From sequence record PZ229304.1: a stretch of DNA of 64,000 nt. The stretch is one strand, 5' to 3'. Within the stretch, counting starts at the first letter, position 1, and each line of letters begins with the position of its first letter. A program made the position numbers and the translations under genes. This DNA is from a phage. The notes beneath the pieces were generated by a model. That model was not told the DNA's origin, did no database searches, and was given only the letters and a program-made list of their open reading frames with translations. Of this stretch, positions 11,937 to 27,600 are shown one piece after another.

Positions 11937-12227
11937 TCACATTAAGACACGTTTTGTATTGATGGGGGCATTGTCGAACATGTTTATCACTTTGTCAAGT
12001 TTGTGTATTAACTCGTTCGTAATGTTCCACTCTTTGTATGATCTCCATTGCTTCTTATTCTCACCTACCTGGTGTAAAACTTTTATTGGTGCATTCAAAC
12101 GTACATTGCGTTCTTTGTCCTCTTCAAAAGAGGCTAACCATTTTTCGTTATGTCCATGAACAGCAATAATAATGCCAAAACCATCAAAAGTTTCTGTAAT
12201 ATTCTTAGTTGCTAGTGTGATGTTCAT
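11937..12227 (-). CDS. hypothetical protein
   Basis: 96-aa track ORF; first gene of the minus block, divergent from the plus island. Confidence 0.45.
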   Translation of the reverse strand: MNITLATKNITETFDGFGIIIAVHGHNEKWLASFEEDKERNVRLNAPIKVLHQVGENKKQWRSYKEWNITNELIHKLDKVINMFDNAPINTKRVLM

Positions 12228-12346
12228 ATCTAACCTCTTTTGTTACGATGCACACAGAGTACCAGAAATTAATTTCAGATCAAGTATTGACATACTGTTT
12301 TATTGTGCTAATCTTAATGCATACACAAATGAGAGGAGATAAACGA

Positions 12347-12898
12347 ATGCAAAACATCGATCTTACTTGGATAGAAGCCAAAGAAGCAATGTTAAAAGGT
12401 AAACGCGTTAAACATAAATACTTTTGCGAAGGAGAATGGTTTGAAATGCGTAACCGATCCCTTATAGATGAAAAAGGGAATGACATGCAACAATGGTTCA
12501 AAAATGAAATTTGGCAGGGAACAGGTTGGTCTGTAGTTGAAGAGCAGCCTAGCTCAAGCGCACTGTTTAGCCCTATTATGTATCGCGTTATCGGTGCTTT
12601 AGTTGTTGATCACGGGATTGCAGTGGAAAAAGAATGCTGGGAAGAGGTATCTTTTTTCAACCTGGCTTCTTATGCAAAAAGCCATATGCACTTGTTTGAA
12701 GAAGGGGATGAATTTGTTCTTCGTATGCGATATGGCAAAGAATTCAGATTACCACTTGATAACGATGTAGACACTGTTGTAAAATGGTTAGCAGAGCATT
12801 ACGCTTACGATGCAATTTGTGGTCGCAGCTTCGGCAACGAACGCTGGGACATGATTTGTGAAAAATATGATTTTGAGCCGGAGTACGGAGTTTTATAA
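12347..12898 (+). CDS. DUF2829/Tad2-like N-terminal domain fused to an uncharacterised C-terminal domain
   Basis: Trimmed to ATG 12347 (GAGAGGAG RBS). N-terminus MQNIDLTWIEAKEAMLKGKRVKHKYF..GEWFEM fits the DUF2829 pattern (L.W..A..A...GK.V) by recollection, not by alignment. Confidence 0.4.
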   Translation: MQNIDLTWIEAKEAMLKGKRVKHKYFCEGEWFEMRNRSLIDEKGNDMQQWFKNEIWQGTGWSVVEEQPSSSALFSPIMYRVIGALVVDHGIAVEKECWEEVSFFNLASYAKSHMHLFEEGDEFVLRMRYGKEFRLPLDNDVDTVVKWLAEHYAYDAICGRSFGNERWDMICEKYDFEPEYGVL

Positions 12899-13149
12899 TG
12901 TTAAGTATCAAACCTAAAATGATAACAGAAGACGAAGCAGACTTTATTTTCAAATGTGGACGTGTATGGAGAGAATTCACAAAAGGAAATGAAGTGGTTG
13001 TTGTTGTCGAACACAAGATATCTATCCAGGATCTGTTTGGACAATATGTTGATGTTATTAAATTAGGTATTGACAAGGGTTTAGTTGAGGTGTTAACATT
13101 AGATCAAGTTGAAGCAGAGCACCTCGATAAAGTGGTGGTTGAATTTTAA
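12898..13149 (+). CDS. hypothetical protein
   Basis: 83-aa track ORF, start overlaps upstream stop. Confidence 0.4.
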   Translation: MLSIKPKMITEDEADFIFKCGRVWREFTKGNEVVVVVEHKISIQDLFGQYVDVIKLGIDKGLVEVLTLDQVEAEHLDKVVVEF

Positions 13150-13169
13150 AATACAGACGGGAGAAAGGT

Positions 13170-13343
13170 ATGAGTTTCTTTGTTACAGTATTTATGGCTA
13201 TCTGGATTGTAGTCTCACTCGTTCTTTTCCTGGTGGGTTGTCTGGAAGAGATTAAGAAAGCGGTTATTTGCGGTTTCTTTGGCTTTATTATCTCTCCTGC
13301 CTGGATGTGGTTCTTCATTATGATTGGTTTCCTTAAAAGGTAA
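13170..13343 (+). CDS. small membrane protein (57 aa)
   Basis: Own translation MSFFVTVFMAIWIVVSLVLFLVGCL..; GGGAGAAAGG RBS; below track cut-off. Confidence 0.35.
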   Translation: MSFFVTVFMAIWIVVSLVLFLVGCLEEIKKAVICGFFGFIISPAWMWFFIMIGFLKR

Positions 13344-13357
13344 GTGAGGAATAAAGA

Positions 13358-13795
13358 ATGAGTAAAACAAACGCAATCGCAGATAAAGCAACGGATGTAC
13401 TTCTGAACATGGTTAACGTCACTATTCAAACAATGAGTGATGTTGTAGAGTTTGGAAAACAACAAATTCCAGAAGTAATCCATCAATTATTAGTGTGGAA
13501 AGCAGTATCCGCAGGTTTATGGCAACTTTTTAGTATTTGCTTTATGTTTATTACTTTTATTGCTGTGCGGAACCTCGTAAAAGCAATTAAAGATAAAGAA
13601 TGCCTGTGGTCACGAGATCGCTATGGTGAAGTATCTCCTTTACCTATTGTTGGCCTTGTTGTCTGTGCTTTCTTTTTCTTTTTAGGATTTGTTATTTTCT
13701 TTTCGAATTTTGATTGGCTAAAAATCATTATTGCACCAAAAGTGTATCTGATTGAATTTGCTGCTGATTTAATTCGTTCATCTCAACAAAAATAA
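13358..13795 (+). CDS. membrane protein (predicted TM helices)
   Basis: Hydrophobic segments AVSAGLWQLFSICFMFITFIAV and IVGLVVCAFFFFLGFVIFF. Confidence 0.5.
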   Translation: MSKTNAIADKATDVLLNMVNVTIQTMSDVVEFGKQQIPEVIHQLLVWKAVSAGLWQLFSICFMFITFIAVRNLVKAIKDKECLWSRDRYGEVSPLPIVGLVVCAFFFFLGFVIFFSNFDWLKIIIAPKVYLIEFAADLIRSSQQK

Positions 13796-13806
13796 AAGGG
13801 GTTAAA

Positions 13807-14934
13807 ATGAAATACACGATTTATGGTGATATTGTAAGTGTAAATAAAGATATGGGCGTGGAATCTAACTATCTTCCACCTGGATTCTATACTGTTAGTC
13901 GTGATCCCCTTGGCAATTACTTTTTAAGCCGTGGTAATCTAACAGGTGTACCGGATGTTCTGTATGGTGAAACAGAAAAACGAGCAAATCACGTTATTCG
14001 TACATTCCATCGCCGGAGTGCACAAGGTAAAAATACAGGCTTGCTTCTGACAGGAACTAAGGGCAGTGGTAAAACTATGTTAGCCAAACTCATTAGTCGT
14101 GACCTTGTAGAAGAAGGTATTCCAACTATTATGGTTACTCAAGCCTACAGTGATGCTAATTTCATTGAACTTATTAGTAAGATCACCGACAAAGCAGTGA
14201 TTATTTTTGACGAATTTGATAAAGTATATGAGAAGAAACAAGATCAAGAAGCACTTCTCACTTTGTTAGATGGTACTGGCAGTGGTAATAAACTGTTTAT
14301 TCTAACTAAAAACAGTGGCTTTATCTCTGAATTCTTTCTAAATCGTCCTAGTCGTGTGTTTTATAATTTTAATTATGATAAAATCTCACTAGAAACTATG
14401 ATTGACTATTTAGATAAAAACCTGGATAACAAAGCACACTTGGATAATTTCCAAAGGCTTTGGGATGTAAGTTTAGAGTTGTCCTTTGATGTGATCCAAG
14501 GTATAGTAGAAGAACTTAATTTCTACCCTGATTTATCCTTTAAAGAATGCATCTCTATGATGGGCGTTTCTTTGGGTGGTGGTAATAAGTGGGATATCAG
14601 CAGCGTTGTTATTAATGGGAAACTTCAGAAAGTTAGCTGGGTATCTAGTTGGCATAACTTCACACCTGCAATCTTTTTAGGTGGCTCGTGCACACTAGAC
14701 GTGTACTTGTCATCTCCAAGTGATGCAGACTCTAAAGAAGCCCTTGCTAATAGCTCTTACGTGGTTTTTGATGATGAAGGAGATGCTCGAATTCCATTGA
14801 ATGCGACAAAAATGAAAGCAGATCTTATTACAGGCGGTAAAATCGTTGTGTTTAGTGATGATCCAGAAGATTCTTTCCGTATTGTTCTGGAACCAACTAT
14901 CACCAATGGTGCAACTTTGGCAAGTGTGTTTTAA
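13807..14934 (+). CDS. AAA+-type ATPase with uncharacterised C-terminal domain
   Basis: Walker A GTKGSGKTMLAKL and Walker B VIIFDEFDK. Confidence 0.6.
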   Translation: MKYTIYGDIVSVNKDMGVESNYLPPGFYTVSRDPLGNYFLSRGNLTGVPDVLYGETEKRANHVIRTFHRRSAQGKNTGLLLTGTKGSGKTMLAKLISRDLVEEGIPTIMVTQAYSDANFIELISKITDKAVIIFDEFDKVYEKKQDQEALLTLLDGTGSGNKLFILTKNSGFISEFFLNRPSRVFYNFNYDKISLETMIDYLDKNLDNKAHLDNFQRLWDVSLELSFDVIQGIVEELNFYPDLSFKECISMMGVSLGGGNKWDISSVVINGKLQKVSWVSSWHNFTPAIFLGGSCTLDVYLSSPSDADSKEALANSSYVVFDDEGDARIPLNATKMKADLITGGKIVVFSDDPEDSFRIVLEPTITNGATLASVF

Positions 14935-14949
14935 GTAAGCCAGCAAATA

Positions 14950-14974
14950 AAAACCCGCTTCGGCGGGTTTTCTT
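14950..14974 (+). terminator. intrinsic terminator
   Basis: AACCCGCTTCGGCGGGTT hairpin followed by TTCTTG. Confidence 0.6.
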
Positions 14975-15008
14975 GCATTAATGCCAGATTTAATAAGAGG
15001 AGTAGTAG

Positions 15009-16202
15009 ATGGCAGCACCAAAATCATGGGAACAATATAAAGAAGAGTGTCAACCTATTGCGAATAATAAAGGGATTGAGATCCTAGGATATGTTGAACC
15101 GTTTATAGGTTGTGATACGAAAATGATTCTACGCTGTAGGCAGGAACATGAATGGAAGACTTGTAGTATTAGTAATTTCAAGCACGGTAACAGTTGTCCT
15201 ATCTGTTCTGGTAAGAAGCCGTTAACATGGGAAACAGAATTGCCGATCTTGGAAGAGATAGCACAGAAGAAGGGGTATCAGGTGTTAGGGTACGTTGGAG
15301 AATGGAAAGGGAATAAAACAAAACTTGATTTGTTGTGCCATTGTGGGAATAGATGGCAAAGTACAGCAATTCATCAATTTAAAGGCGGTCGAGGTTGTCC
15401 ACAATGTAGGGGGGAGAATACAAGGAAGGCACTAACAATGTCCGACGATCAACATATTGCAGATTTCTTTTCTACAGGGAAATTTAAGGAAGGCACTATC
15501 TTCACTAACACAGGAACACGGAGTAAAGGATGCAGGCATAGTATCTGGATGGTTGAATGTCCTGTTTGCTCTCATGATGAATATGTTCAAGCAGGTGTTT
15601 GTGATGGTAAATTTTACTCTGAAGGAAATAACCTTAAACGAGGGTGCATTCCGTGTCGTTGTGGAAACTATCGGTATACAGAAGACCAGATCACCTATAG
15701 GGTAAAAAAGGAAGTAGAAGGGCAAGGGTATGTCTGGGTAGGTTGGATCGGTAAACCGTCTAGAAGTCACGGTAAGTTTAAATATCTTTGTCTTGTGCAT
15801 GGGGAACAGACAGGGAGGGCTAATAACTTATTAAGCCTCGGTCAAGGTTGTCCACAGTGTGCTGGTCATAATCAACAGCAATTATATATTAATATTGTTA
15901 AAGATAATGATATTATAGTGGCTCTTAAGTTTGGTATAGCTAAAGATAGTGATAGGCGATTAAATAGTCAAAATAGTTGTAATATGTTTTTTATGGAGCG
16001 TATTTGTTTATATGATTTTAGCACAGTGAAACAATGTAAGGCTGCTGAAAGAGCTATAAAGAAAAAATTAAAAACTGGTATTTTAACGGAAAGAGAGTTG
16101 AAAGACGGTTATACAGAAACAGTAAGTGTTTCTGATTTGGAAAATCTTCAAGAAATTATTACACAACATGGTGGCAAATTAGTATATAATAAGGAGATGT
16201 AA
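15009..16202 (+). CDS. tandem zinc-ribbon repeat protein with C-terminal GIY-YIG-like (T5orf172-type) putative nuclease domain
   Basis: About four repeats of GY..G.....K......C..GH.W.....F..G..CP.C.G (CPICSGKK, CPQCRGEN, CPVCSHDE, CPQCAGHN); C-terminus YINIVKDNDIIVALKFGIAKD..RRL..N...ERI.LYDF resembles the T5orf172/GIY-YIG pattern by recollection. Confidence 0.5.
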   Translation: MAAPKSWEQYKEECQPIANNKGIEILGYVEPFIGCDTKMILRCRQEHEWKTCSISNFKHGNSCPICSGKKPLTWETELPILEEIAQKKGYQVLGYVGEWKGNKTKLDLLCHCGNRWQSTAIHQFKGGRGCPQCRGENTRKALTMSDDQHIADFFSTGKFKEGTIFTNTGTRSKGCRHSIWMVECPVCSHDEYVQAGVCDGKFYSEGNNLKRGCIPCRCGNYRYTEDQITYRVKKEVEGQGYVWVGWIGKPSRSHGKFKYLCLVHGEQTGRANNLLSLGQGCPQCAGHNQQQLYINIVKDNDIIVALKFGIAKDSDRRLNSQNSCNMFFMERICLYDFSTVKQCKAAERAIKKKLKTGILTERELKDGYTETVSVSDLENLQEIITQHGGKLVYNKEM

Positions 16203-16754
16203 ATGCGGATTACTGATAAATATGTGTTCTTCTTCTCGGCAAAAGATGAATTTAGCAACTGGTATCTATCATCTTTTATTGAACCTTTAGCTCCCAAGTA
16301 TAATAATTCTATTACAAGTTCTGTTGAATTTACTTGTGTGGAACAATATATGATGTGGAGAAAAGCATGTTTGTTTTATGATTACAACATTGCATCTTCT
16401 ATTTTAACCGGAGATCTAAGATATACAGGAGAAAAAGAACAGGCATATTATAAGCGACTAGGTAGATTAGTTAAAGATTACGATGAAGCTACTTGGACTT
16501 CTTTACGGGAGAAGATTGTCAAGCGTGGTTTGTATCTTAAATACACACAAAATGAAGATCTCAAAAATAAACTTATCGCTTACGCAGATAAGGAGTTCGT
16601 AGAGGCAAGCCCTTATGATTCTATTTATGGTATCAAAATGGGAATGTGGGATCGTGATGTGGAAAATAAGGACTGTTGGAAAGGACAAAATCTTTTAGGA
16701 AAATGGCATACAGACCTTGCTGTTTATCTAAAAGCACAATCTGATATTTCCTGA
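16203..16754 (+). CDS. NADAR (YbiA-like, DUF1768) domain protein
   Basis: FFFSAKDEFSNWYLSSF, FTCVEQYMMWRKACLF and SPYDSIYGIKMGMWDRD..KDCWKGQNLLGKWHTDLAV parallel the YbiA motifs FYS..D.YG.FSNF, TSEHYFQA.KF and D.YWG.G..G.G.N.LG. Confidence 0.7.
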   Translation: MRITDKYVFFFSAKDEFSNWYLSSFIEPLAPKYNNSITSSVEFTCVEQYMMWRKACLFYDYNIASSILTGDLRYTGEKEQAYYKRLGRLVKDYDEATWTSLREKIVKRGLYLKYTQNEDLKNKLIAYADKEFVEASPYDSIYGIKMGMWDRDVENKDCWKGQNLLGKWHTDLAVYLKAQSDIS

Positions 16755-16967
16755 TATTTTGAAAATTTTTATTTTTATAAAAAGGGGTGTGGGTTTCATG
16801 TACGGAAATCCACCCTCTGAATAATATATCCAGAGTAAATATTATTCTGTACTCTGTTAATAAAGTATTTAATTTGTTTGTTGGACTATGGTATCTGATC
16901 TTTAAAAGGCATACTATCTCTTAACTACTACTTATAACAGAACAGTAAAATCATTTTTATAAAAAGG

Positions 16968-17170
16968 ACAAAATTATTTAAAGTTTTTACAGATTTTTGG
17001 GTACAAATTTTGAAAATGAAAAGTTCAAGTTTGGTCAAAATTATTTAAAGTTTTTGTATGTATTTCTATCCAGATTTTGAAAATGAAAACTTCAATTTTT
17101 TAAAAATTCCCCAGTTTATTTAAAGTTTTTTTGCCTTTTTCCGTAGAAAAATCAAAAATGAAAAGTTCAA
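16968..17170. repeat. three tandem direct repeats of about 67-72 bp (TATTTAAAGTTTTT ... TTTTGAAAATGAAAAGTTCAA), iteron-like
   Basis: Read directly in non-coding DNA. Confidence 0.6.
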
Positions 17171-17196
17171 TTTCGTGTTTTTATAGGTGTGCGTAT

Positions 17197-17306
17197 GATA
17201 ATCATTCTCATTTGTAAATGAGAATCATTATCATTTAAGTATGTAAGTGATAATCATTCTCATTAAGAGAATGAGAATCATTAGCAAATGAGAATTTTTC
17301 TCATTT
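17197..17306. promoter_or_regulatory. cluster of Fur-box-like palindromes (GATAATCATTCTCATT x2, AATGAGAATCATTATC)
   Basis: AAATGAGAATCATTATC matches the Fur consensus GATAATGATAATCATTATC at about 16/19 by hand. Confidence 0.45.
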
Positions 17307-17567
17307 AGAGAATAACGCGCAGGGGCGGTGTTTGTCTCGCGCTCCCGTGTCCCCTCGCCATACAATAAGAATAGCATAACCAACAACAAAAGCAAGCGAT
17401 TATTTTTATCTTTACATTTCTTTACAAATTTATTTTAGACGAGCTACCGGCGATCAACCTTCCAACCAGTGCCCCCTGGTATGTTAGCCCCGCCTTTACG
17501 CCGTGGGGGTGGCGCTTCCTCTTCTGTATGTAAAACAGTATAAGCCCGATCCCTGGGCTTGTCAAGA

Positions 17568-17834
17568 TTATTTTTTGTTTTCTTGCCAGGATAGGACACC
17601 TAACCAAAAATACATGTCGCCCCGCGCCCCTGGTGGGATCTTGCTTTCCCCGCCGCCACTGCAAGCCCATAGATAACCATTAGCGAACGGATCAAAGTTT
17701 TCTATTTCTTCCACCTTATGATCGCCCAGGTTGAGAACGGTTTCGACCTTTAAGCCCGTTGCGCTTGCTACCTGGTGCACCGTGCCGCCTTGCCAGCCCA
17801 ATGAGTGCATAAGGTGTAAAGTAGTATTTGTCAT
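17568..17834 (-). CDS. hypothetical protein (uncertain)
   Basis: 88-aa ORF with ATG and weak RBS in a GC-rich stretch where overlapping spurious frames are common. Confidence 0.25.
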   Translation of the reverse strand: MTNTTLHLMHSLGWQGGTVHQVASATGLKVETVLNLGDHKVEEIENFDPFANGYLWACSGGGESKIPPGARGDMYFWLGVLSWQENKK

Positions 17835-17933: not shown

Positions 17934-18266
17934 TTAAAAAAATGGTTGACGTTCCTCACCTGGTAGCGTAATATTCATCTTGTCGAGGGGGGCAAGGCAC
18001 AACGACAATAAACAATAGGCGGGTGCAATGCATGACGGGCAAAGGTGAGGATCTCCACAATCCACCGTCACAATAACATTACTTATAAAAGGTTGATAAC
18101 GATGATCAAGAAAGAAAATAGCTTGACGGTTGGAACGATTAACGCTATCATTCTCGCCGTTCCATTTTGGATTGTAGTGGCGGTTGTTATTTTCTAAAAA
18201 ATATTCTTGACAACGTTTTTTAATCTGATAAGATGTATCACATAGGGCGGCAATAGTGCCGCTCAT
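17934..18266 (-). CDS. hypothetical Cys-rich protein (uncertain)
   Basis: 110-aa ORF with ATG start, but its 5' end overlaps the promoter/hairpin of the first plus-strand cassette. Confidence 0.2.
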   Translation of the reverse strand: MSGTIAALCDTSYQIKKRCQEYFLENNNRHYNPKWNGENDSVNRSNRQAIFFLDHRYQPFISNVIVTVDCGDPHLCPSCIAPAYCLLSLCLAPLDKMNITLPGEERQPFF

Positions 18267-18286
18267 AACAGAAGAGAGAAATAATC

Positions 18287-18559
18287 ATGGCATCATATAG
18301 CGCATCAATGATCGTAGCTGGCATCACTGGTAAACCTATGCGCGGTGGCGGATCTTTCGCTAACATCAATATTGATGGACGTTTATCCCTGGACGCAGCG
18401 ATCACCGTGGCACGGGAAACGTTTAAAAAAGAATGTAATTTCAATAAACAAGATTATCTCGGTTTCGCTATTGAAAAAACCGCGCGATTTGTGGATTATA
18501 AAAGCCCGAAAATGATCGACACTACACTAAAAGCGCAAGATGTAGCGTTTTTGCTTTAA
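18287..18559 (+). CDS. hypothetical protein (cassette gene)
   Basis: Preceded by TTGACA promoter, CACATAGGGCGGCA..TGCCGCT hairpin and AGAGAG RBS. Confidence 0.5.
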   Translation: MASYSASMIVAGITGKPMRGGGSFANINIDGRLSLDAAITVARETFKKECNFNKQDYLGFAIEKTARFVDYKSPKMIDTTLKAQDVAFLL

Positions 18560-18562
18560 GGC

Positions 18563-18622
18563 TTGACACTGAAAAATACTTTGTTAATATATACCACATA
18601 AGGCGGGGAAATGGTTTCCCGC
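18563..18622 (+). promoter_or_regulatory. sigma70-type promoter (TTGACA-N16-TAATAT) plus 5' leader hairpin GGCGGGGAAATGGTTTCCCGCC
   Basis: Read directly; same architecture recurs through the array. Confidence 0.6.
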
Positions 18623-18645
18623 CAAATCAAAGAAAGGGTAATGCA

Positions 18646-19008
18646 ATGAGCAAGCAAATCAATACTATCATGTTTAATCTGGTATCTTTCCGCGATGACG
18701 TGAAAAACCTTTCGCGTGGTGCAGTGGATGCACGGATCGAAAGCTATCGCACACAGATCGCAACGTTACCGCTGAAACGTGATCAACATGCCGCTAATAT
18801 GATGCTTGATGCTATGATTAAAAAGATGATTCAATGTGATCTTACTCTGGCTTATGAATATGCTGGCGATCTCTTTGTAACGTATAACAAGCCCGTTCCA
18901 GGTATGAGCACCACGGAAGAATTGCATGCCTTAAATCTGCGACAAGATGCATGGGATAACATGCGCCGTGTTATGGTATGGGTAGAAAGCGGCAAAATTT
19001 ACGCGTAA
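18646..19008 (+). CDS. hypothetical protein (cassette gene)
   Basis: 120-aa track ORF downstream of promoter-hairpin unit. Confidence 0.5.
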   Translation: MSKQINTIMFNLVSFRDDVKNLSRGAVDARIESYRTQIATLPLKRDQHAANMMLDAMIKKMIQCDLTLAYEYAGDLFVTYNKPVPGMSTTEELHALNLRQDAWDNMRRVMVWVESGKIYA

Positions 19009-19083
19009 AGATTGACATTACACGAAAACCTGATAAGCTATCTTAAAGCGGGAATAGTTCCCGCTTACATAGGATAAAACTTT

Positions 19084-19230
19084 ATGAAACAATATGTAAT
19101 GAGTATTCATACCAAAAACGGCGCTACTGTTACGACTCCGGCACGGTTTGCACTTGTAAACCGTTGCAAGAGACTAAAACGAGAGCTAAAAAATAACCGT
19201 GCAACCGGTTTTAAACGCTGGGGAGGATAA
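19084..19230 (+). CDS. small basic protein (48 aa)
   Basis: Own translation MKQYVMSIHTKNGATVTTPARFALVNRCKRLKRELKNNRATGFKRWGG; preceded by TTGACA promoter and GCGGGAATAGTTCCCGC hairpin. Confidence 0.3.
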   Translation: MKQYVMSIHTKNGATVTTPARFALVNRCKRLKRELKNNRATGFKRWGG

Positions 19231-19232
19231 TC

Positions 19233-19493
19233 TTGTTTTTTCTAAAAGTTTTTGATAATGTGATCGCTTTTGAACATGCTACGACGTTCGACCTGGCGAG
19301 ATACGCTATCAGGTTTAAAGATAATGTTTATCCCCGTGCTGGCGGCGGTTACACTATTTTTAATCATCGTAACGCTCAATTAACGGATATAACTAATCCA
19401 GGCCCTGGAGTGTATCGCATAGGCTGGCTACCGTCAAAAGACGCGGCAAGCATGTTTAAGGTATGTAAACTACTAACAGAAGAGGCGAACTAA
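19233..19493 (+). CDS. hypothetical protein
   Basis: 86-aa track ORF, TTG start just after GGAGGA. Confidence 0.35.
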   Translation: MFFLKVFDNVIAFEHATTFDLARYAIRFKDNVYPRAGGGYTIFNHRNAQLTDITNPGPGVYRIGWLPSKDAASMFKVCKLLTEEAN

Positions 19494-19494
19494 C

Positions 19495-20049
19495 ATGGGG
19501 CGTGAGTATGTGATCCAGTCCTGGGTAAAGCATGACGCTAATGATCCGCGCATAATACCAGATGACATGATCGATCACATGGTAGGGTATAGCGGGGAGC
19601 AGATAGGAAATCGAGCGGCAAAGAGCAACGGCAACACAAAGGCGCGATCCGTTCGCCCTGGTTGGCTGGCAAATGGTAACGCTGACATTGCAAGCGCCGC
19701 AGATCCAAGCGATGACGCTAAAAATAATCCCTTGTACAGCATTGATCCGGCTTTTAAGGTGTTGGAAGAGTATCCCGCTAAATTAGCCGCACTAGATAAG
19801 GCATACGAAGAAAAGCGCATGGCATGGACTGTATACAACACCGCTAAAATGGTGCTAGATGCAAAATTGATTAAAGCCCAGGAGAAGATCAATAAACTTG
19901 TTACCATAGCGCAAGAGGAAGACCAGGACGACCAGGAGGAAGAGGAAGAAATCATGCCTATCCTGGAAGAGGAAGAGATCCAGCCATACATGCCGACGGA
20001 AGAGGAAAAAAGACAAGCCCTAAAAAATTACGAAAATTGTATTGTGTAA
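19495..20049 (+). CDS. hypothetical protein with acidic C-terminus
   Basis: 184-aa track ORF; the longer antisense frame 19575-19991 is treated as a shadow. Confidence 0.45.
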   Translation: MGREYVIQSWVKHDANDPRIIPDDMIDHMVGYSGEQIGNRAAKSNGNTKARSVRPGWLANGNADIASAADPSDDAKNNPLYSIDPAFKVLEEYPAKLAALDKAYEEKRMAWTVYNTAKMVLDAKLIKAQEKINKLVTIAQEEDQDDQEEEEEIMPILEEEEIQPYMPTEEEKRQALKNYENCIV

Positions 20050-20195
20050 GGCTTGACATATGCAAACAAGCCCCGTAATATGTACCACATAAAGCGGGGC
20101 AACGCCCCATAAGGTGAAATAAAAAATCACTTGACACCTGAAATCAGTAAGCTATAATGCTTATATAGATTGAAACATTACTAAGGAATAAAAGC

Positions 20196-20375
20196 ATGGC
20201 TATTATTGCAAAGACTGAGATCGTAGGTTTAGATTCTATCATCCTGGCATATGAGGAAGCTATAGAAATGTATGTGGTTTCCTATGGTGATTATATCCGT
20301 GAATATAAATCTATTGATCTAGCTTTTGAATGTTATATTCGCCAGGTAAATAAAGCATACGATGATTATCGTTAA
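20196..20375 (+). CDS. small hypothetical protein (59 aa)
   Basis: Own translation; TTGACA-N17-TATAAT promoter at 20131-20160 and AAGGAA RBS. Confidence 0.3.
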   Translation: MAIIAKTEIVGLDSIILAYEEAIEMYVVSYGDYIREYKSIDLAFECYIRQVNKAYDDYR

Positions 20376-20470
20376 AAGTTTTAGTCTTGTGCTATTGACA
20401 ACGAACGATAGTACAAGCATAATAACTTTTATCGGGAATACTCCTAACTAATCAAAAGAGATTAAAGACT

Positions 20471-20836
20471 ATGGCTAAAAATATCAATGTTTCTGCTTAT
20501 GCTACCCTGGCTAACACTGCTAAAATTGAACTATCCAGCATTGAAGCGGTACATATTAGCGCCCGTCGCTGGTTTCAAAAGTCTTATGGTAATACTTATT
20601 TCTCTTTGATGGTTGACGTTGAGATCGGCGGTAAACTGATTGAAGTCGTTAACGTTCCGTTTCAATATGGCTACGGGGATCATTTTGATACCGTTGCCCT
20701 AGAAGAGTTTAGCAAGGTTATCAACCTGGAAGGTAAAGACTTTTCAAATTATGCTTACCTTTCCCGCTTTTGCCGTGATAATGGGATCGCTGTATACAGT
20801 CATGCAAGCGATGTTAAACGTAAAAAAGATTTATAA
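20471..20836 (+). CDS. hypothetical protein (cassette gene)
   Basis: 121-aa track ORF with TTGACA promoter at about 20394. Confidence 0.5.
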   Translation: MAKNINVSAYATLANTAKIELSSIEAVHISARRWFQKSYGNTYFSLMVDVEIGGKLIEVVNVPFQYGYGDHFDTVALEEFSKVINLEGKDFSNYAYLSRFCRDNGIAVYSHASDVKRKKDL

Positions 20837-20924
20837 AAAGCATTGACAGCACGAATAAAAAGCATATAATACTTATATCGAGAGCGGGAATAGTTCCCGC
20901 CTCACTGAAAAAGAGATTAACATC

Positions 20925-21164
20925 ATGGCTAAATCTAAAATGTACAACGGTCACAAAAATAAAACTCATTGGAATGTAAGCCTTTGGATCAACAATGATG
21001 AAGGTTTTTATAATCTTGCACGTGAATTTATTGCAGCTAACACCAATAAGAATGACGCAGCGCGTGATATGATGCTATTTCTTGAAAGTATGGATCAAGA
21101 TAAAACGCCAGACGGTTACAAGTTCAGTAAAACTGCAATCCGCGCCGCGATGGTTGGAATGTAA
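20925..21164 (+). CDS. hypothetical protein (cassette gene)
   Basis: 79-aa track ORF; TTGACA-N16-TATAAT and GCGGGAATAGTTCCCGCC hairpin upstream. Confidence 0.5.
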   Translation: MAKSKMYNGHKNKTHWNVSLWINNDEGFYNLAREFIAANTNKNDAARDMMLFLESMDQDKTPDGYKFSKTAIRAAMVGM

Positions 21165-21259
21165 AGGAGACATAAAAATGAAACATCGTTCGACCTATCT
21201 CACAAAACGTTTTAGCTTAGATCATAAATTGGGCTATTACGGAAGAAATAGAAAATAAT

Positions 21260-21319
21260 TTGACAACGTTTTAAATTAGTGTAATATATATCACATAGGG
21301 CGGGAAATGGTTTCCCGCC
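21260..21319 (+). promoter_or_regulatory. sigma70-type promoter (TTGACA-N17-TAATAT) plus 5' leader hairpin GGCGGGAAATGGTTTCCCGCC
   Basis: Read directly. Confidence 0.6.
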
Positions 21320-21341
21320 AAATCAAAGAAAGGTTATCATT

Positions 21342-21569
21342 ATGGCTATCGTTATTGTTCGCGTATCCGGTACGGTTGGAATCTCTCAGGTAGTAGCAGT
21401 TATCACAGAGAAGAAAGGAGATGATCTTCACTCCTCCTTGAATAGCTGGGCGGTCGCTAATTTTGGGCAATGGTCGAGCGTTGAGTACATCGAATCCTAC
21501 CAGGTGCCAACGATTAGCCTGACCGATCTGAATGTTGATCGCTTGTTGTGCCTGGATCAATTAAATTAA
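21342..21569 (+). CDS. hypothetical protein (cassette gene)
   Basis: 75-aa track ORF. Confidence 0.45.
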   Translation: MAIVIVRVSGTVGISQVVAVITEKKGDDLHSSLNSWAVANFGQWSSVEYIESYQVPTISLTDLNVDRLLCLDQLN

Positions 21570-21655
21570 AAATAATATTGACAAGATAACTAAAATCAGT
21601 AAAATGTAATGCATAGGGCGGCACTATTGCCGCCCTAGTGAGAGAGATTATCAAA

Positions 21656-21871
21656 ATGGCTAATATCCGCACACTGTTAAAAAATGCAAGTCAAGTTTTA
21701 TTTTCAGATGACGAATATTTTAATAAAGATATTACAGGCGTGAAAAATTTAAAAGACGTGAAGGATGTTATCGGTATCCGTGGATCTTTACGTAAAGGTG
21801 ACATATACGGTAACAAGGTGCAGTATAAACTGTCAAAAGATTATGATTTTACTTTGACAATTATTTCATAA
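21656..21871 (+). CDS. hypothetical protein (cassette gene)
   Basis: Trimmed to ATG at 21656 (MANIRTLLKN) because the track start lies inside the leader hairpin. Confidence 0.45.
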   Translation: MANIRTLLKNASQVLFSDDEYFNKDITGVKNLKDVKDVIGIRGSLRKGDIYGNKVQYKLSKDYDFTLTIIS

Positions 21872-21962
21872 AACTACTTGCAAACCTGGTAAAATAAAGT
21901 AAACTATATTCATTAAGGCGGTGGAATAGCCAACCGCCTAACAAAGAGAAGAGGAAAACATC

Positions 21963-22133
21963 ATGATCACTTTCGCTACCCGTGAAGCCGCTCGCAACGT
22001 TGCACGTAAAGTTAACGCCGCCAACCTGGGCGCTACGCTTAAAGCCCCGGTAAAAGATGAATCAGGAAAATGGATCTTCCCTGGTCTGCGTCACGCTGAT
22101 AAGCTGGGAACATTAACGTTAAAAAATAAATAA
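21963..22133 (+). CDS. small hypothetical protein (56 aa)
   Basis: Own translation MITFATREAARNVARKVNAANLG..; promoter, hairpin and AGAGAAGAGGA RBS upstream. Confidence 0.4.
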   Translation: MITFATREAARNVARKVNAANLGATLKAPVKDESGKWIFPGLRHADKLGTLTLKNK

Positions 22134-22140
22134 TATTCGC

Positions 22141-22199
22141 TTGACAGTAGCATCATTTATAAGTAAAGTAACAACAACGGCGGGAAATGGTTTCCCGCC
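22141..22199 (+). promoter_or_regulatory. sigma70-type promoter (TTGACA-N17-TAAAGT) plus leader hairpin GGCGGGAAATGGTTTCCCGCC
   Basis: Read directly. Confidence 0.6.
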
Positions 22200-22219
22200 A
22201 TCAATAAAGAGATAAGATT

Positions 22220-22579
22220 ATGAAATCAGCAAAAGCAATTAAAACTTACATTTTGTCGGCTATTTCTTTTGATGGTACTACAACCGAAAAAGAAAAAATC
22301 ACCGAACTGATGCGCCGTTTTAATTCTGAATACTGGTATCCCGATAATCAAAAACGTTACAATTATAACGTGATCAAGGCGATAGCCTCATGGTTACAAG
22401 GTTTACCGTCAGAAATCAATATTGCTTTTGATTATAACGAGATCGATCACTTGTTAATTGAATGGAAGTACATAAAAGAAACAAGCAAAGAAACAACCGT
22501 TACCCGTGAGCGGGAAAATTATTGGTTATATATTGCAAGCATGATCGTAATCCTGGCAAAACAGCATAACGTGGCGTAA
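22220..22579 (+). CDS. hypothetical protein (cassette gene)
   Basis: 119-aa track ORF. Confidence 0.5.
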   Translation: MKSAKAIKTYILSAISFDGTTTEKEKITELMRRFNSEYWYPDNQKRYNYNVIKAIASWLQGLPSEINIAFDYNEIDHLLIEWKYIKETSKETTVTRERENYWLYIASMIVILAKQHNVA

Positions 22580-22594
22580 TTAAGAGGAAGAAAC

Positions 22595-22732
22595 ATGAAC
22601 GCATCACAGCAGATCGAAAAATTCAACCGCAGCAAGGCGCGTAAAGATTGGAACGAAGAGATCACCAAAAAAGGTGACAAGCGGAACAAAACAAAGAGAG
22701 ATCGCAGCACAAAAAGATACTGGAACGAATAA
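22595..22732 (+). CDS. small basic protein (45 aa)
   Basis: Own translation; AAGAGGAAG RBS; terminator immediately after. Confidence 0.3.
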   Translation: MNASQQIEKFNRSKARKDWNEEITKKGDKRNKTKRDRSTKRYWNE

Positions 22733-22735
22733 CAA

Positions 22736-22762
22736 AAAAGGGCGCAATAAGCGCCCTTTTAG
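22736..22762 (+). terminator. intrinsic terminator
   Basis: AGGGCGCAATAAGCGCCCT hairpin plus T-run. Confidence 0.6.
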
Positions 22763-22850
22763 CTTATATAGAGGCTTGTTACCCATAGGCAATGGTAACG
22801 CCAGGGCAAGCCTATAAATCAACGTTAGACGGCTTTACAGGAGCTTTAAA

Positions 22851-23033
22851 ATGAGATTAGAAGAAATAAGCAAGGCACTAGCCCAGGGGCAAAGGTTAAA
22901 CGCCCGTTATCGTGATCAATATGGTTTCATAACTAGCGGCGTGATCCTGGGGATTGAAGACAATAAGATTTTTATTGACACGTTGAAAAACGTTGTATAT
23001 AGTGACAATATAATCTCAATAAAACATATATGA
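22851..23033 (+). CDS. hypothetical protein
   Basis: 60-aa track ORF. Confidence 0.35.
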   Translation: MRLEEISKALAQGQRLNARYRDQYGFITSGVILGIEDNKIFIDTLKNVVYSDNIISIKHI

Positions 23034-23041
23034 GGCAAGAA

Positions 23042-23443
23042 ATGAAAAAATTATTGATCGCTGGTTTACTCTCTTTTGGCATGGTTGGAACATCTAGCGC
23101 GGCGATATCCTCCACAGTAGCAGAATTAAGCGCCGTTGATGCAATGGAAAACGTCATGCTTATTAACAATGCGATCCCCGATGAAATCATGGAGGATTCA
23201 CACATGATCGCTTATGGTGCTGTTACACAACTAACGGCAAAAATAGATAAATCTATTGTTAATGGCTTAAATGAAGATGTACCATGTGAAATTATTACAA
23301 GTGTGCTGACTACTCAAAATTTTACGCCGTGGTTAAAAAGTATTCAAAAAGTACACAGTACAGCCGCAGATCGTAGCAATGAAAAACTAGTGTCAGCACT
23401 TGCAACGTATACCCTGGCAAAATGCACCGAGATAAAAGATTGA
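23042..23443 (+). CDS. secreted protein with signal peptide
   Basis: Trimmed to ATG 23042; MKKLLIAGLLSFGMVGTSSAA is a typical Sec signal. Confidence 0.5.
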   Translation: MKKLLIAGLLSFGMVGTSSAAISSTVAELSAVDAMENVMLINNAIPDEIMEDSHMIAYGAVTQLTAKIDKSIVNGLNEDVPCEIITSVLTTQNFTPWLKSIQKVHSTAADRSNEKLVSALATYTLAKCTEIKD

Positions 23444-23490
23444 CAACATAGAAAGCACGTTATAAGATACACACAACAAAGGAGAACTAC

Positions 23491-23787
23491 ATGAACGGCA
23501 TAGCTAAAACGTTTTTTCTTTTTTCTGGTGTAAATGATCCATCAATAAAAGTCGATAGTGTAAAAGAAAACAATACTATCACAGCTAAATTGTATCAAGA
23601 TGAAACAAATAACGTGCTAATCATTAATCTTAAAGAAATAACAAAAGGTTATTATGCTATTGCTTACCATGCGATTTATCATGCTGGTACTAGTGAGGAA
23701 GTGCAAACAAGCAACAACGAAAGCGCGGCGCTACCTGGTGATCTGGTGCTGGGCGTTATCAGTTTAATTGTCAATGATTTTTTTTAA
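23491..23787 (+). CDS. hypothetical protein
   Basis: 98-aa track ORF with TTGACA promoter at about 23443. Confidence 0.45.
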   Translation: MNGIAKTFFLFSGVNDPSIKVDSVKENNTITAKLYQDETNNVLIINLKEITKGYYAIAYHAIYHAGTSEEVQTSNNESAALPGDLVLGVISLIVNDFF

Positions 23788-24123
23788 GGAGTAAAACCAT
23801 GCCCTATTTACATTTATTTTTCGGTATCTTATTGACGGGATCTTTTTTCTTCTGTATGCTTGTTTCTATTGTAAACCACGTTTTAAGACATTAAGGAAAC
23901 AGCATGAAAATTATTCCCGTACAATATAGCGTAATAAATCCAGCATACGAGGAAGGAAGGAAAACAAGCATGGCTTTATGTTGTATTACTACTATAGCCA
24001 TGTTGTTATACATTGTGTTTTAATAGGTTTTATAGTTGTACGCTTTAAAGGCTTGACAATTTTTTGTTATGCTTTAAACTATATCTTGAAAACGGCAAAG
24101 GCCGCAAACAAAAGGGTAAAATT

Positions 24124-24447
24124 ATGAAATCTGTGATCGGTGTTTATTTGGATAACTCTGATTTTTTCTATCATCGCGCTCGTTTCCTTGATGCGATTGA
24201 AATGATAGAATCAGGCTTTAAAGAGTATCGCCTTGCACATGATGACCTGGAAGCATTACAGGGCAATAGTGTTTTTACATTGCAAGCGAAAGCACTATGT
24301 AAAAGCCGGATCGACATTGCGAGCAAAAAGATAGAACGCGGCATGTCCTGGTTGCGCACCGCAGAAATCAACATGGGGCAATGGCACGGCGAAAACTTAG
24401 AAAATAAACATACTTTTGTCAATGTAGAAAATATTGAAGATTATTGA
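24124..24447 (+). CDS. hypothetical protein
   Basis: Trimmed to ATG 24124 (MKSVIGVYLD). Confidence 0.45.
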   Translation: MKSVIGVYLDNSDFFYHRARFLDAIEMIESGFKEYRLAHDDLEALQGNSVFTLQAKALCKSRIDIASKKIERGMSWLRTAEINMGQWHGENLENKHTFVNVENIEDY

Positions 24448-24510
24448 TTGACAGCACACCTGATAAGTAGTATATTGTATCTCATAGAGCGGGGAAATGG
24501 TTTCCCCGCC
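24448..24510 (+). promoter_or_regulatory. sigma70-type promoter (TTGACA-N17-TATATT) plus leader hairpin GCGGGGAAATGGTTTCCCCGC
   Basis: Hairpin carries a compensatory G:C pair relative to the common GGCGGGAAA/TTTCCCGCC form. Confidence 0.6.
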
Positions 24511-24529
24511 TTAAAAGAAGAGATAAGCT

Positions 24530-24814
24530 ATGAAGATCACAAAAGCACTTTCCAACTATGCAGCACGTCGCGGCTTATGTTTAACCGTTGAAAACCTGGG
24601 GAAAGAAGATTTTTTGTGCTTTTGGGAGCTTGAGAATGATAATGAGTGGATCTTCTCTTATTCTATCTGCGAAGATCAAAACGGTTGTTTATTAACCTGG
24701 CGCGGTAATATCTATCTACCGGAAGAAATCAAAGAAGAATTGCCAGGCACGATCATGACTGAGAAACAGCTTAAGGAAGTGATCAATTTTGTAGGGCAAA
24801 ACATTAAAAAATAA
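24530..24814 (+). CDS. hypothetical protein (cassette gene)
   Basis: 94-aa track ORF. Confidence 0.5.
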   Translation: MKITKALSNYAARRGLCLTVENLGKEDFLCFWELENDNEWIFSYSICEDQNGCLLTWRGNIYLPEEIKEELPGTIMTEKQLKEVINFVGQNIKK

Positions 24815-24815
24815 T

Positions 24816-24875
24816 TTGACACCAGGCAAACAACGTAGTAAAGTTTATCACATAGGGCGGGAAATGGTTTCCCGC
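24816..24875 (+). promoter_or_regulatory. sigma70-type promoter (TTGACA-N17-TAAAGT) plus leader hairpin
   Basis: Read directly. Confidence 0.55.
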
Positions 24876-24897
24876 TCACAACAAAAGAGAACAAATC

Positions 24898-25068
24898 ATG
24901 ATCCCGACTATGTTTTACGTATCGCGCAAAGGTCACAATATTTTTTGGTCTGAAGATTTAAATGAAGCCATGACGTTTGCCCGTGATCGTGTTGCTATCG
25001 GTGGCGTTAACATTACTGTAACCGATGAAAACGGCATTGAATACTATAACGGCGACGATGAAGAGTAA
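24898..25068 (+). CDS. small hypothetical protein (56 aa)
   Basis: Own translation MIPTMFYVSRKGHNIFWSEDLNEAMTFARDRV.. Confidence 0.35.
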   Translation: MIPTMFYVSRKGHNIFWSEDLNEAMTFARDRVAIGGVNITVTDENGIEYYNGDDEE

Positions 25069-25115
25069 TTAATGAGGCGGGGGAGTATTCCCCGCCGTCA
25101 ATAAAGAGGTAAATC

Positions 25116-25385
25116 ATGAAAATATCATTTGACGTTGCAATCAAGGCCATCGAATCCGGTTACACCCTGGTAAAAGATGATAAGGCTAAAATAGTGCATC
25201 ATGTTAACAAGGAAACAGGCGAAAGCATGATCACATATAAAGCCGCCTACTTTCTCCAATCAGTAGCAGATCCGCGCGTACAGCGCCAGGTCACGGCGGC
25301 TATTGCTAAAAAATTATGTGCTTTACAGGGCACAAGTTTTAACGAGATCCCGCCGTGTTTTGACTGGTCGAGCTTGAAAAAATAG
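25116..25385 (+). CDS. hypothetical protein (cassette gene)
   Basis: 89-aa track ORF; hairpin variant GGCGGGGGAGTATTCCCCGCC upstream. Confidence 0.5.
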   Translation: MKISFDVAIKAIESGYTLVKDDKAKIVHHVNKETGESMITYKAAYFLQSVADPRVQRQVTAAIAKKLCALQGTSFNEIPPCFDWSSLKK

Positions 25386-25581
25386 TTTGACAATATGCGG
25401 TTATCTGGTAAAGTGTACCACGTAGGGCGGGGCAATAAGGCAACGCCCACTAATGAGGGTAAAATCATGTTAGAGAAAATTTTCACGGTTGTAGTAGTGG
25501 GCCTGGCGTTATCGGTTGGATTGGTTGCAACTATGGCTAACATGATCCTATCTTCCCACGGTATTGGATAAGGTGAATCAA

Positions 25582-25815
25582 ATGATCACGAATAAGACAG
25601 GTAAAACAGAATTTTTACGCGGCTTGCAAATAGGTAAACCTGAAATCTGGCATTGCACTAAAACACCACGTGACGAAATGAAAGATTTCACCGCTACTTT
25701 ACAACGTGTTAAAATATCTATCACACAGAAAAAAGCCTTGTTAGTAGTAGAAAACGAGATCCCGCAAACCAGATCGGGAATGATTTACATTTTACCCGTA
25801 ACGGTCACGGCGTAG
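25582..25815 (+). CDS. hypothetical protein
   Basis: Trimmed to ATG 25582; a 34-aa membrane peptide ORF lies just upstream (25468-25572). Confidence 0.4.
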   Translation: MITNKTGKTEFLRGLQIGKPEIWHCTKTPRDEMKDFTATLQRVKISITQKKALLVVENEIPQTRSGMIYILPVTVTA

Positions 25816-25943
25816 GCTTTTGGGATCGCCCTGAAATATACACTACTAACACCGCCAACCGCCTAACAAATGCGGCTAAATTAATGCCATCGGTGCATGC
25901 TTACATTGGTGAAGATAATTTGATTTATATTGAATAAAAAGTA

Positions 25944-26003
25944 TTGACACCGATCCCCCAATATGTTACTATTTACCACGTAGGCGGGAAATGGTTTCCC
26001 GCC
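25944..26003 (+). promoter_or_regulatory. sigma70-type promoter (TTGACA-N17-TACTAT) plus leader hairpin GGCGGGAAATGGTTTCCCGCC
   Basis: Read directly. Confidence 0.6.
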
Positions 26004-26026
26004 AGGTAATCAAAAAGGTAAATACT

Positions 26027-26416
26027 ATGCGCAACCTGGTTTCTGTTTCTAACGTTGAAAAATTCCAATCTTTACAGGGTATCGTTAACAACGTAGCGCC
26101 TTTTTTAGTCAATGGCTTGATTGCAAAGATGAAGAATAAACATCATGCCGCATGGTCTGCTTACTGCTTTGACAATGATGAAAAAGCGGCTGAAATGATG
26201 TTAAATATGCTGTTAGACAGTGTAGAATCATCTTTACCGGAAAACATCGCAGAAGAGATCACCTATCGTTATAATATGGCGATCACTTACCAGGAGGTTG
26301 CGCAATTTAATATGATGGACGATGACGAACAACAGGATCAGGAAATATTCTGGGAGTATGCGGATCGTCAATCGGCTTTTGATGAAAAGTTAGCGATGTA
26401 TTATAACGAATATTAA
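26027..26416 (+). CDS. hypothetical acidic protein
   Basis: Trimmed to ATG 26027 because the track start lies in the hairpin. Confidence 0.5.
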   Translation: MRNLVSVSNVEKFQSLQGIVNNVAPFLVNGLIAKMKNKHHAAWSAYCFDNDEKAAEMMLNMLLDSVESSLPENIAEEITYRYNMAITYQEVAQFNMMDDDEQQDQEIFWEYADRQSAFDEKLAMYYNEY

Positions 26417-26430
26417 TACACGGTAAAAGA

Positions 26431-26457
26431 AAGGGGCGCACTAAGCGCCCTTTTTTG
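26431..26457 (+). terminator. intrinsic terminator
   Basis: GGGGCGCACTAAGCGCCC hairpin plus TTTTTT. Confidence 0.65.
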
Positions 26458-26878
26458 TATTCTTTTTTCACAATGGAAGCGACACGTAAAGAATAGGCGT
26501 AAAGGTGGCGTAAAACCATCTAAAACCGACTGTAACCGCTTAAACAAGGTAGGAATGATTAATCACCTTACCAGGATGAAAAAGCTGTTATAAAGCTATA
26601 TAGGGCGTTTAAAGCACATAGGAAATAATTTGCTTTTTATCTTGCCTTTTATTCTGCTTTTGATTATTATTATGGAACGGGCGGCACCTGGGAACAGGGG
26701 AAGATAATCACCGGACGACCCCGCTATATATTGATAGCTAACATCTATCAAACAACAAAACATCAAAGGAATAAACTATCAAATCTTTACAATCTCATCT
26801 ATTGACCGGTAAATCATAGCAGTTTAATATTGTTTTTAGAGGGTAGAACATACCCAAAACGAAAACAGGAAAAAGAAA

Positions 26879-27115
26879 ATGAAAGAAGTCATGATCCTCA
26901 AAAAATCACCTATTTTACGTGGTGGCTTTATCGCTTACTCTGATGATCTGTTAATTGCAACGGTTGCAAAAATACTAAAATCAGAAGAGGATAGTAAAAA
27001 CGGCGTTTATCGTATCTGTTTCACCCGTGGGAAATTGCAAGGCAAGATCGCCTATGCTTTTGATTTACAAGATGTAAATGATAAAATCTGCGCTGTTATT
27101 GATTATGCAAAATAA
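26879..27115 (+). CDS. hypothetical protein
   Basis: 78-aa track ORF; TTGACC..TAATAT promoter about 26790. Confidence 0.45.
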   Translation: MKEVMILKKSPILRGGFIAYSDDLLIATVAKILKSEEDSKNGVYRICFTRGKLQGKIAYAFDLQDVNDKICAVIDYAK

Positions 27116-27586: not shown

Positions 27587-27600
27587 ATGACACTTCACAC

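Follow-up and report, generated by a model that had tools for sequence, protein, structure and literature searches.

A conserved three-unit repeat array in phi92-like phages, a candidate platform for a sequence-specific DNA-binding protein

Unique clusters of several direct-repeat classes, lying in AT-rich DNA beside promoters, are typical of phage replication origins, as exemplified by the iterons of lambda ori and T4 oriE. In phage T5, the inner end of the left terminal repeat contains 'Repeat Region 3', which carries the DRD, DRC and DRA repeats (Davison 2020, bioRxiv 10.1101/866236). The rV5/phi92-like phages (Vequintavirinae and Stephanstirmvirinae) are represented by several hundred sequenced genomes, many of them from phages proposed for therapy, and have no mapped replication origin. 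The analysis of rV5 could not locate an origin and marks only a 'non-coding' box (PMC3606486), and no cis-regulatory region of this phage group was described in the literature searched.

The DNA analysed here is a 64,000-nt stretch of a phage genome (PZ229304.1), referred to as the window. A prior reading of the letters alone (the sequence-only reading) had reported three tandem direct repeats at 16968-17170 and proposed them as candidate iterons or multimeric regulator binding sites. This array is a real, selected and previously uncharacterised cis-element. The GenBank records of phages alia, inny and muut label it merely 'repeat_region', the phi92 record carries no annotation for it, and literature searches on phi92 repeats, rV5/PVP-SE1 origins, transcription in the group and phage Fur boxes returned no description of it.

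Architecture of the array and its surroundings

Between positions 16000 and 18500 the window shares ~98% identity with Escherichia phages of the phi92-like genus Justusliebigvirus (Stephanstirmvirinae). The array sits inside a 1.5-kb gap without credible genes, and its placement between plus-strand genes that end at 16754 and an array of small genes that starts at 18287 agrees with the sequence-only reading. The elements of the locus are as follows.

15009-16202: gene of a 397-aa protein with four CapR-homology zinc-ribbon repeats and a T5orf172 domain (PHROG 'endonuclease')
16203-16754, plus strand: NADAR/YbiA-like gene, left border of the gap (Pfam NADAR, E=2e-36)
16953-16967: ATTTTTATAAAAAGG (its core, TTTTTATAAAAA, is palindromic), directly adjoining unit 1 and found again in identical form at 16771-16785
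16968-17035: repeat unit 1 (box A 16969-16988, spacer 16989-17012, box B 17013-17034)
17036-17110: repeat unit 2 (box A 17036-17055, spacer 17056-17079, box B 17080-17101, then a longer linker)
17111-17176: repeat unit 3 (box A 17111-17130, spacer 17131-17154, box B 17155-17176)
~17178-17187: partial copy, TTTTTATAGG, just right of unit 3
17191-17312: four to five Fur-box-like palindromes (15-16/19 matches to GATAATGATAATCATTATC), starting 15 bp right of unit 3
17313-17536: GC-rich block, conserved across Stephanstirmvirinae and Vequintavirinae
17537-17565, minus strand: sigma-70 early-type promoter TTGACA-17-TATACT (11/12 match)
17568-17834, minus strand: gene of the 88-aa protein gp224
from 18287, plus strand: first gene of a long series of small genes, right border of the gap

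The presence of three tandem direct repeats was confirmed both by a repeat search, which returned three copies of 79 nt (16953-17031, 17020-17098 and 17095-17173, at spacings of 67 and 75) sharing 72% identity with the first copy, and by TRF (67-bp period, 2.0 copies, 81% matches, score 178). The repeat length had been given as 67-72 bp and is corrected here to measured periods of 67 and 75 bp; the location of the array stands, with its right end moved from 17170 to ~17176, the limit of the conserved part. In each unit, a 24-nt spacer of free sequence separates box A (TTATTTAAAGTTTTT) from box B (AAAATGAAAAGTTCAA). Box A, as TATTTAAAGTTTTT, is exact at 16975, 17042 and 17117, and box B is found at 17013, 17080 (with one mismatch) and 17155, the left part of the unit 3 copy deviating (AATCAAAAATG versus ATTTTGAAAATG). 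The offset from A to B is 38 bp in all three units, and the units are joined by linkers of 13 or 21 bp. Identical residues occupy 42 of the 78 aligned columns and are clustered in the two boxes. The array contains three non-overlapping copies of the 15-mer TTATTTAAAGTTTTT. When 16755-17194 was shuffled 2000 times with dinucleotide composition preserved, the longest k-mer with three non-overlapping copies averaged 7.4 nt and reached at most 11, and a 15-mer was obtained in 0/2000 shuffles, which excludes chance as the source of the repeat. Elsewhere in the 64 kb, boxes A and B have no matches beyond degenerate ones at chance level. The motif thus occurs once and is absent from other intergenic regions, which argues against a general phage promoter motif.

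The array has a GC content of 25% and is rich in A4-6 and T4-6 tracts (AAAATTATTTAAAGTTTTT). The segment 16820-17170 is at the 99th percentile of the window for low duplex stability, the minimum lying instead at 27.92-28.25 kb. The claim that the array lacks coding potential was upheld: the only open reading frames that overlap it encode 21-36 aa, mostly from TTG starts, and units 1 and 2 are out of frame with each other because of their 67-bp period, so a reading as conserved small ORFs was rejected.

The gene of the 397-aa protein, which directly precedes the NADAR gene, probably represents a homing-endonuclease-like insertion. Pfam and PDB gave no match for gp224, whose distribution does not track the type of repeat unit. 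Short direct repeats of the form (T)GATATTT(G), in 2-4 copies, straddle the stop codon of the gene upstream of the array (16741-16765 in the window) and were found in every lineage examined, though the upstream gene itself differs between the subfamilies. In a comparison of three plus-strand gene blocks (12000-17000, 18000-27000 and 29000-41000), the 18-27-kb block, which is flanked by both non-coding regions, showed a GC skew of ~0.08 as against ~0.19 in the other two, and an AT skew (0.06-0.24) much higher than that of the other plus-strand blocks. There is no switch of GC skew at the position of the array.

The second long non-coding region of the window, 27600-29750, includes the least stable duplex noted above, repeated TATCTAAC-like motifs, and Fur-like boxes at 27889, 28767 (17/19) and 28962. 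The close relative BME3 has 342-bp direct terminal repeats as determined by PhageTerm (PMC12210895), and when the ends of its record are mapped onto the window this repeat falls at 28694-29035, 11.5 kb right of the array. The physical genome ends therefore probably lie within 27600-29750, and a packaging role for the array is unlikely at this distance. In the BME3 record (PP239276.1), the first 788 bp are repeated near its end and a third copy of the 342-bp repeat is present; the deposited ends look redundantly assembled, and the exact boundaries of the BME3 repeat are correspondingly uncertain.

Conservation of the array and of its neighbouring elements

Thirteen Justusliebigvirus genomes were aligned over window positions 16660-17560. 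Variable columns numbered 34/213 in the upstream non-coding stretch, 9/209 in the repeat array and 18/136 in the Fur-like palindromes. Of the nine variable columns of the array, eight belong to the spacers of units 1 and 2 and the ninth to the outer edge of the first box A (16969), with no variable column in any box B or anywhere in unit 3. The boxes (1/126) are about 14 times less variable than the spacers (8/72; Fisher p=0.0015) and are likewise distinguished from the flanks (52/349; p=8e-7), whereas spacers and flanks are alike (p=0.46). That the spacers vary at the rate of the flanks and the boxes at a far lower one shows that the spacers drift like neutral DNA and that the boxes are held by selection, and selection on the boxes only is the pattern that would be predicted for protein-binding sites. 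The description of the units as two common boxes around a variable spacer thus holds among the 13 genomes. All 13 carry three units, and 53 near-full-length matches (95-99% identity) agree with that number; in phi92, one spacer contains an insertion of 1 nt. With the exception of the GC-rich block, the array is the most strongly selected non-coding sequence of the 1.5-kb gap.

Conservation in relatives had been proposed as a check on the significance of the repeats, and they are indeed kept in more than 50 close relatives and in two further lineages of Stephanstirmvirinae, with the architecture extending across Vequintavirinae. Klebsiella phage phi1_175008, which is ~68% identical to the window here, has three units with the 38-bp offset and periods of 67 and 75 bp. 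Phapecoctavirus ESCO13 also has three bipartite units with the 38-bp offset, at periods of 66 and 72 bp, and in both ESCO13 and anhysbys (likewise 66 and 72 bp) the middle unit is degenerate. Over the array region, identity between the window and the Klebsiella and Phapecoctavirus relatives is only ~66-69%. In Klebsiella phage 05F01 the A-to-B offset is 21 bp, not 38, which together with the spacer insertion of phi92 indicates that the geometry is not absolutely rigid. The consensus across these lineages is TTATTTAAA(G/C)nTTT for box A and AAAAnnAAAAnTTnAA for box B.

The homologous slot in Vequintavirinae was located using the GC-rich block (17300-17620) as an anchor. Between the upstream gene and the Fur-like palindromes, these phages have approximately three tandem units of other sequence, in which GGTTCTCGATCG is followed by TTTTCAAAATCG...CGTATTTTTTCT and then, after 8 nt, by CGAAAAAATTTTT. 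In PVP-SE1, 4MG, Mydo and IMG/VR relatives, a period of 74-76 bp precedes one of 67 bp; the Erwinia phage has periods of 74 and 71 bp, and Certrevirus of 78 and 63 bp. A pair of distances is thus common to both subfamilies, with its order reversed. Global and profile comparisons of the units of the two subfamilies were not significant in either orientation. Among local alignments, 52 pairs were in the reverse orientation versus 29, and the top five were all reverse and in the same register; for example, the reverse complement of unit 2 (AAGTTTTCATTTTCAAAATC) and unit 1 of PVP-SE1 (AAGTTTTCGATTTCAAAATC) share 18/20 identities in this register. The matches are short and AT-rich, and they make it moderately likely that the array is ancient and was inverted in one subfamily. 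Such an event would mean that the element can be turned round with respect to its flanks, a property expected of a DNA platform but not of promoters or transcripts. Five of the six Vequintavirinae lineages examined have 4-6 GATC sites per 226 bp of array, and the Erwinia phage has one.

A search of IMG/VR for the bipartite pattern found three copies only in phi92-like phages; the other 57 loci were single matches, and the three of these on large contigs that were inspected are chance matches inside coding sequence. A similarity search of plasmids and E. coli genomes returned no match to the array. Just to the left of their three-unit array, Vequintavirinae have about three copies of the motif TATCTCAA(A/C), which is also the core of T5 'direct repeat A' (T5 1060-1105); the window has a single TATCTC at ~16917. 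Two records named 'Campylobacter phage A145/B15' (MG065645.1) are 96.7% and 92.5% identical here to E. coli Justusliebigvirus or Phapecoctavirus, and the A145 record is flagged UNVERIFIED; the assignment of these phages to a Campylobacter host is doubtful.

The Fur-like palindromes were said to adjoin the array, and they do lie directly to its right, with the match to the Fur consensus listed above. Palindromes of the same sequence type occur in the left terminal repeat of T5 as 'direct repeat C / palindromes G-I' (T5 1490-1660); a link between palindromes of this type and Fur is absent from the T5 repeat paper (bioRxiv 10.1101/866236) and from the other literature searched. In Vequintavirinae the palindromes overlap a promoter-like TTGAAT-N17/18-CAGAAT that follows an A/T tract, as read by eye; in the lineage of the window, the rightward promoter at the Fur boxes is a weak one (9/12 at best).

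The GC-rich block that follows (17313-17565, with a core at 17409-17534) is 82-84% identical across the subfamilies, far above its flanks, and is conserved in PVP-SE1, 4MG, Mydo, phiTE, PBES02, the Erwinia phage and others. Within it, CCCC/GGGG and CGCC/GGCG could pair in a nested, pseudoknot-like manner, and a single pair covaries, being G-C in five lineages and A-U in four; the block is otherwise too conserved for the strand to be assigned by covariation; Rfam has no family for it. Promoter-like elements (TGTGTATAAT in several lineages) are found on its plus strand. At 17409-17428 the block reads TCTTTACATTTCTTTACAAA, which includes TTTAC-N5-TTTAC at 17411-17425, a pattern with only one other occurrence in the 64 kb and one that we take to be the reverse complement of the CpxR consensus GTAAA-N5-GTAAA. 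Both pentamers are kept in 8/9 lineages, 05F01 departing in the first. In the record IMGVR_UViG_2974574029_000001 the core of the block is split by an insertion of ~750 bp, which may be a mobile element, and the conserved flanking sequence is partly duplicated. The minus-strand promoter at the right edge of the block shares its upstream A/T tract and -35 region (AAAAAATAWTCTTGACAA) with a plus-strand early promoter near 18200, and it appears by eye to be conserved in ESCO13, two Klebsiella phages, PVP-SE1, phiTE and PBES02. The promoter is strong, and an early transcript should therefore run leftward through the GC-rich block towards the Fur sites and the array.

Candidate functions of the array

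Conserved boxes around a spacer that is free in sequence and fixed in length, a maintained copy number and set of distances, tolerance of inversion, uniqueness within the window and box sequences specific to each lineage together point to a platform of composite binding sites, and we place the probability that the units act as a DNA array for a putative DNA-binding protein at roughly 0.7. Each unit would be one composite site, comprising box A, the 24-bp spacer of unconstrained sequence and box B, and three copies at 67 and 75 bp would allow several molecules of one sequence-specific protein to assemble into a higher-order complex. This protein is probably encoded by the phage, because the box sequence changes with phage lineage. 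A search for the cognate protein showed that the window lacks any homologue of the upstream gene conserved in Vequintavirinae, and no initiator-like gene is found next to the array, its neighbours being the NADAR protein, the CapR/T5orf172 endonuclease-like protein and gp224; an initiator could be encoded elsewhere. The array may be regarded as one module of a 0.8-kb non-coding control region that appears to be conserved in all rV5/phi92-like phages, with the order GATATTT repeats, three-unit array, Fur-box-like palindromes, GC-rich element and early promoter firing back towards the array.

The platform could play an iteron-like role, marking and opening the start site of phage DNA replication, possibly helped by leftward transcription from the early promoter. 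A replication role is suggested by the unique AT-rich locus, the several classes of repeat, the inward promoter, the GATC sites in most Vequintavirinae arrays, the divergence of the boxes with lineage and the precedent of iteron-type origins in lytic phages (lambda, T4 oriE). The least stable duplex of the window, at 27.92-28.25 kb, and the unswitched GC skew at the array speak against it. This full reading, a protein platform with an iteron-like function in replication start, is tentative, and is slightly favoured over a role in transcription control. The iteron label of the sequence-only reading holds as far as the conserved direct repeats in the same orientation; the array departs from the class in the size and spacing of its units and in lacking both an initiator gene next to it and sites for host factors, so that it is better termed iteron-like in logic than an iteron. 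Pattern scans found no DnaA box within ~300 bp of the array (the nearest, a DnaA-like 9-mer at 16658, is inside the upstream gene), no IHF consensus site within ~900 bp and no Fis-like site inside the units, and by eye the units fit none of the OmpR, ArgR and FNR consensus sequences as we know them. The other label of that reading, multimeric regulator binding sites, is as possible as iterons. The units may then form an upstream regulatory array, comparable to the multiple upstream Fis sites of rrnB P1 or to operator clusters, at which a phage or host transcription factor activates or silences the rightward Fur-box promoter, the early promoters of the small genes, or both. Conserved boxes with free spacers fit such an array equally well, orientation independence is typical of upstream activating sites, the units lie 15-150 bp upstream of the Fur-box-like palindromes that overlap a promoter-like sequence in Vequintavirinae, and the almost invariant CpxR-like TTTAC-N5-TTTAC is in the same region. 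However, the target promoter is weak in the window lineage, a single target region in ~146 kb with sites 67-75 bp apart would be unusual, and the units do not match the consensus patterns of Fis or IHF. No transcript data for this phage group were found in the literature searched, and we regard transcription control as a possible but somewhat doubtful function. Several forms of promoter were tried directly and rejected: as sigma-70 promoters on either strand the units give only one weak match (9/12), in one unit, and as -35/-10 or UP-element plus -10 arrangements they have an unsuitable distance between the boxes and a -10-like GAAAAT that is lost in relatives.

The units could instead be selected for curvature or for coating by H-NS, Fis or HU, as a structural spacer or insulator; the 25% GC content, the A4-6/T4-6 tracts of the window and of Vequintavirinae (AAAAAATTTTT), and the retention of geometry where sequence differs between subfamilies are in keeping with this. 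Boxes of 20-22 bp that are conserved almost absolutely, base by base, beside freely varying and equally AT-rich spacers argue instead for base-specific recognition over general shape, and an architectural role is unlikely. A merely young tandem duplication without function agrees with the bare 'repeat_region' of TRF and the GenBank annotators, but it is hardly credible for an element whose copy number, spacing and boxes are conserved across genera only ~66-69% identical here and whose boxes vary so much less than its spacers. A transcribed repeat RNA, serving as a protein sponge or a type III antitoxin mimic, has a precedent in the pseudo-ToxI of phiTE, where tandem non-coding repeats act as RNA (PMC3475682), and the early promoter at 17565 points through the array. 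Against this, folding gave no signal on either strand (z = +0.88 and +0.31) and Rfam nothing at the array, on which basis a structured RNA was rejected; the units are 67-75 nt with free spacers, as opposed to near-identical 36-nt ToxI-type repeats; pseudo-ToxI itself is found in phiTE between genes 202 and 203, at 106.7 kb (PMC3475682), whereas the slot homologous to that of the array is at ~39.3 kb, a different locus, and repeats of that type were set aside on these grounds; the apparent inversion between subfamilies would swap the transcribed strand; and no genome examined deviates from three copies. An RNA role is accordingly very improbable. A CRISPR-like array was likewise rejected, as two different boxes alternate and spacer length and copy number are fixed across genera, and there are no cas genes in the annotated relative that covers window positions 1 to ~46000.

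By analogy with lambda cosB, the array might instead be a recognition site for terminase, of the pac or cosB-like type, having three repeated sites in a unique non-coding region. The GATC clusters of the Vequintavirinae arrays recall the pac site of P1. The relatives phiTE and rV5 have been reported to be circularly permuted headful packagers (PMC3475682, PMC3606486). There is, however, no terminase gene nearby, and the mapped ends do not coincide with the array: the terminal repeats of BME3 map to the distant position given above, and the records of phi92, ESCO13 and several other Phapecoctavirus phages end ~10-14 kb to its right. A packaging function is highly improbable, slightly more so than that of an RNA.

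A broader proposal, which we consider rather speculative, is that the rV5/phi92-like phages all have in common a control region, paralleled in T5, that senses the state of the host. The platform, the Fur boxes, the CpxR-type box and a conserved, putatively structured element transcribed towards the array from the early promoter would together gate either transcription-primed replication (through an R-loop, as in ColE1 or the T7 primary origin) or the early genes according to iron and envelope-stress status. Should the array prove to be an origin or master control site, this would explain the Fur-type host sites beside it, as in the T5 repeat region, and would be of use in phage engineering, for example for replication-conditional variants or safe insertion sites. 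The array in any case offers a precise 54-bp bait for its reader protein and a defined target for deletion.

Comparison with known repeat systems

The array is probably a variant of the repeated protein-binding sites found at origins or control regions. With the origin iterons of lambda ori (the O-binding repeats), P1 oriR and T4 oriE it shares direct repeats in the same orientation in a unique, AT-rich, non-coding stretch, a nearby promoter, repeat sequences that diverge with lineage, and selection on the repeats and not on the intervening DNA. It differs from them in that iterons are sites of 17-22 bp approximately two helical turns apart, whereas the units here are 54-bp two-box composites at 67 or 75 bp, and in having three copies only, no adjacent initiator gene and no DnaA or IHF sites. 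Centromere-like arrays such as F sopC (12 x 43 bp) and P1 parS also comprise tandem units of tens of bp with a conserved core, and box A and box B of P1 parS form a bipartite site that is read by one protein; the array of the window, in contrast, has no ParA or ParB genes nearby and only three copies, and belongs to a virulent phage. Lambda cosB, with its three gpNu1 R sites, resembles the array in being a unique cis-acting region with three protein-binding repeats, protein binding at the array being predicted, but the array is located away from the terminase genes and the mapped genome ends. The closest described counterpart is Repeat Region 3 of T5. Both are long untranslated regions with several classes of direct repeat, both are more conserved than the neighbouring genes, and in both a direct-repeat array stands beside the same Fur-box-like sequence, which is that of the DRC repeats/palindromes G-I in T5 and of 17191-17312 in the window. 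The T5 region differs in having paired DnaA boxes and a nick site and in lying within a 10-kb terminal repeat, where the array of the window is 11.5 kb from a repeat of 342 bp, and the T5 direct repeats themselves (TGTCGGATTTGCACA, nine copies of 15 bp) are unrelated in sequence to the units described here.
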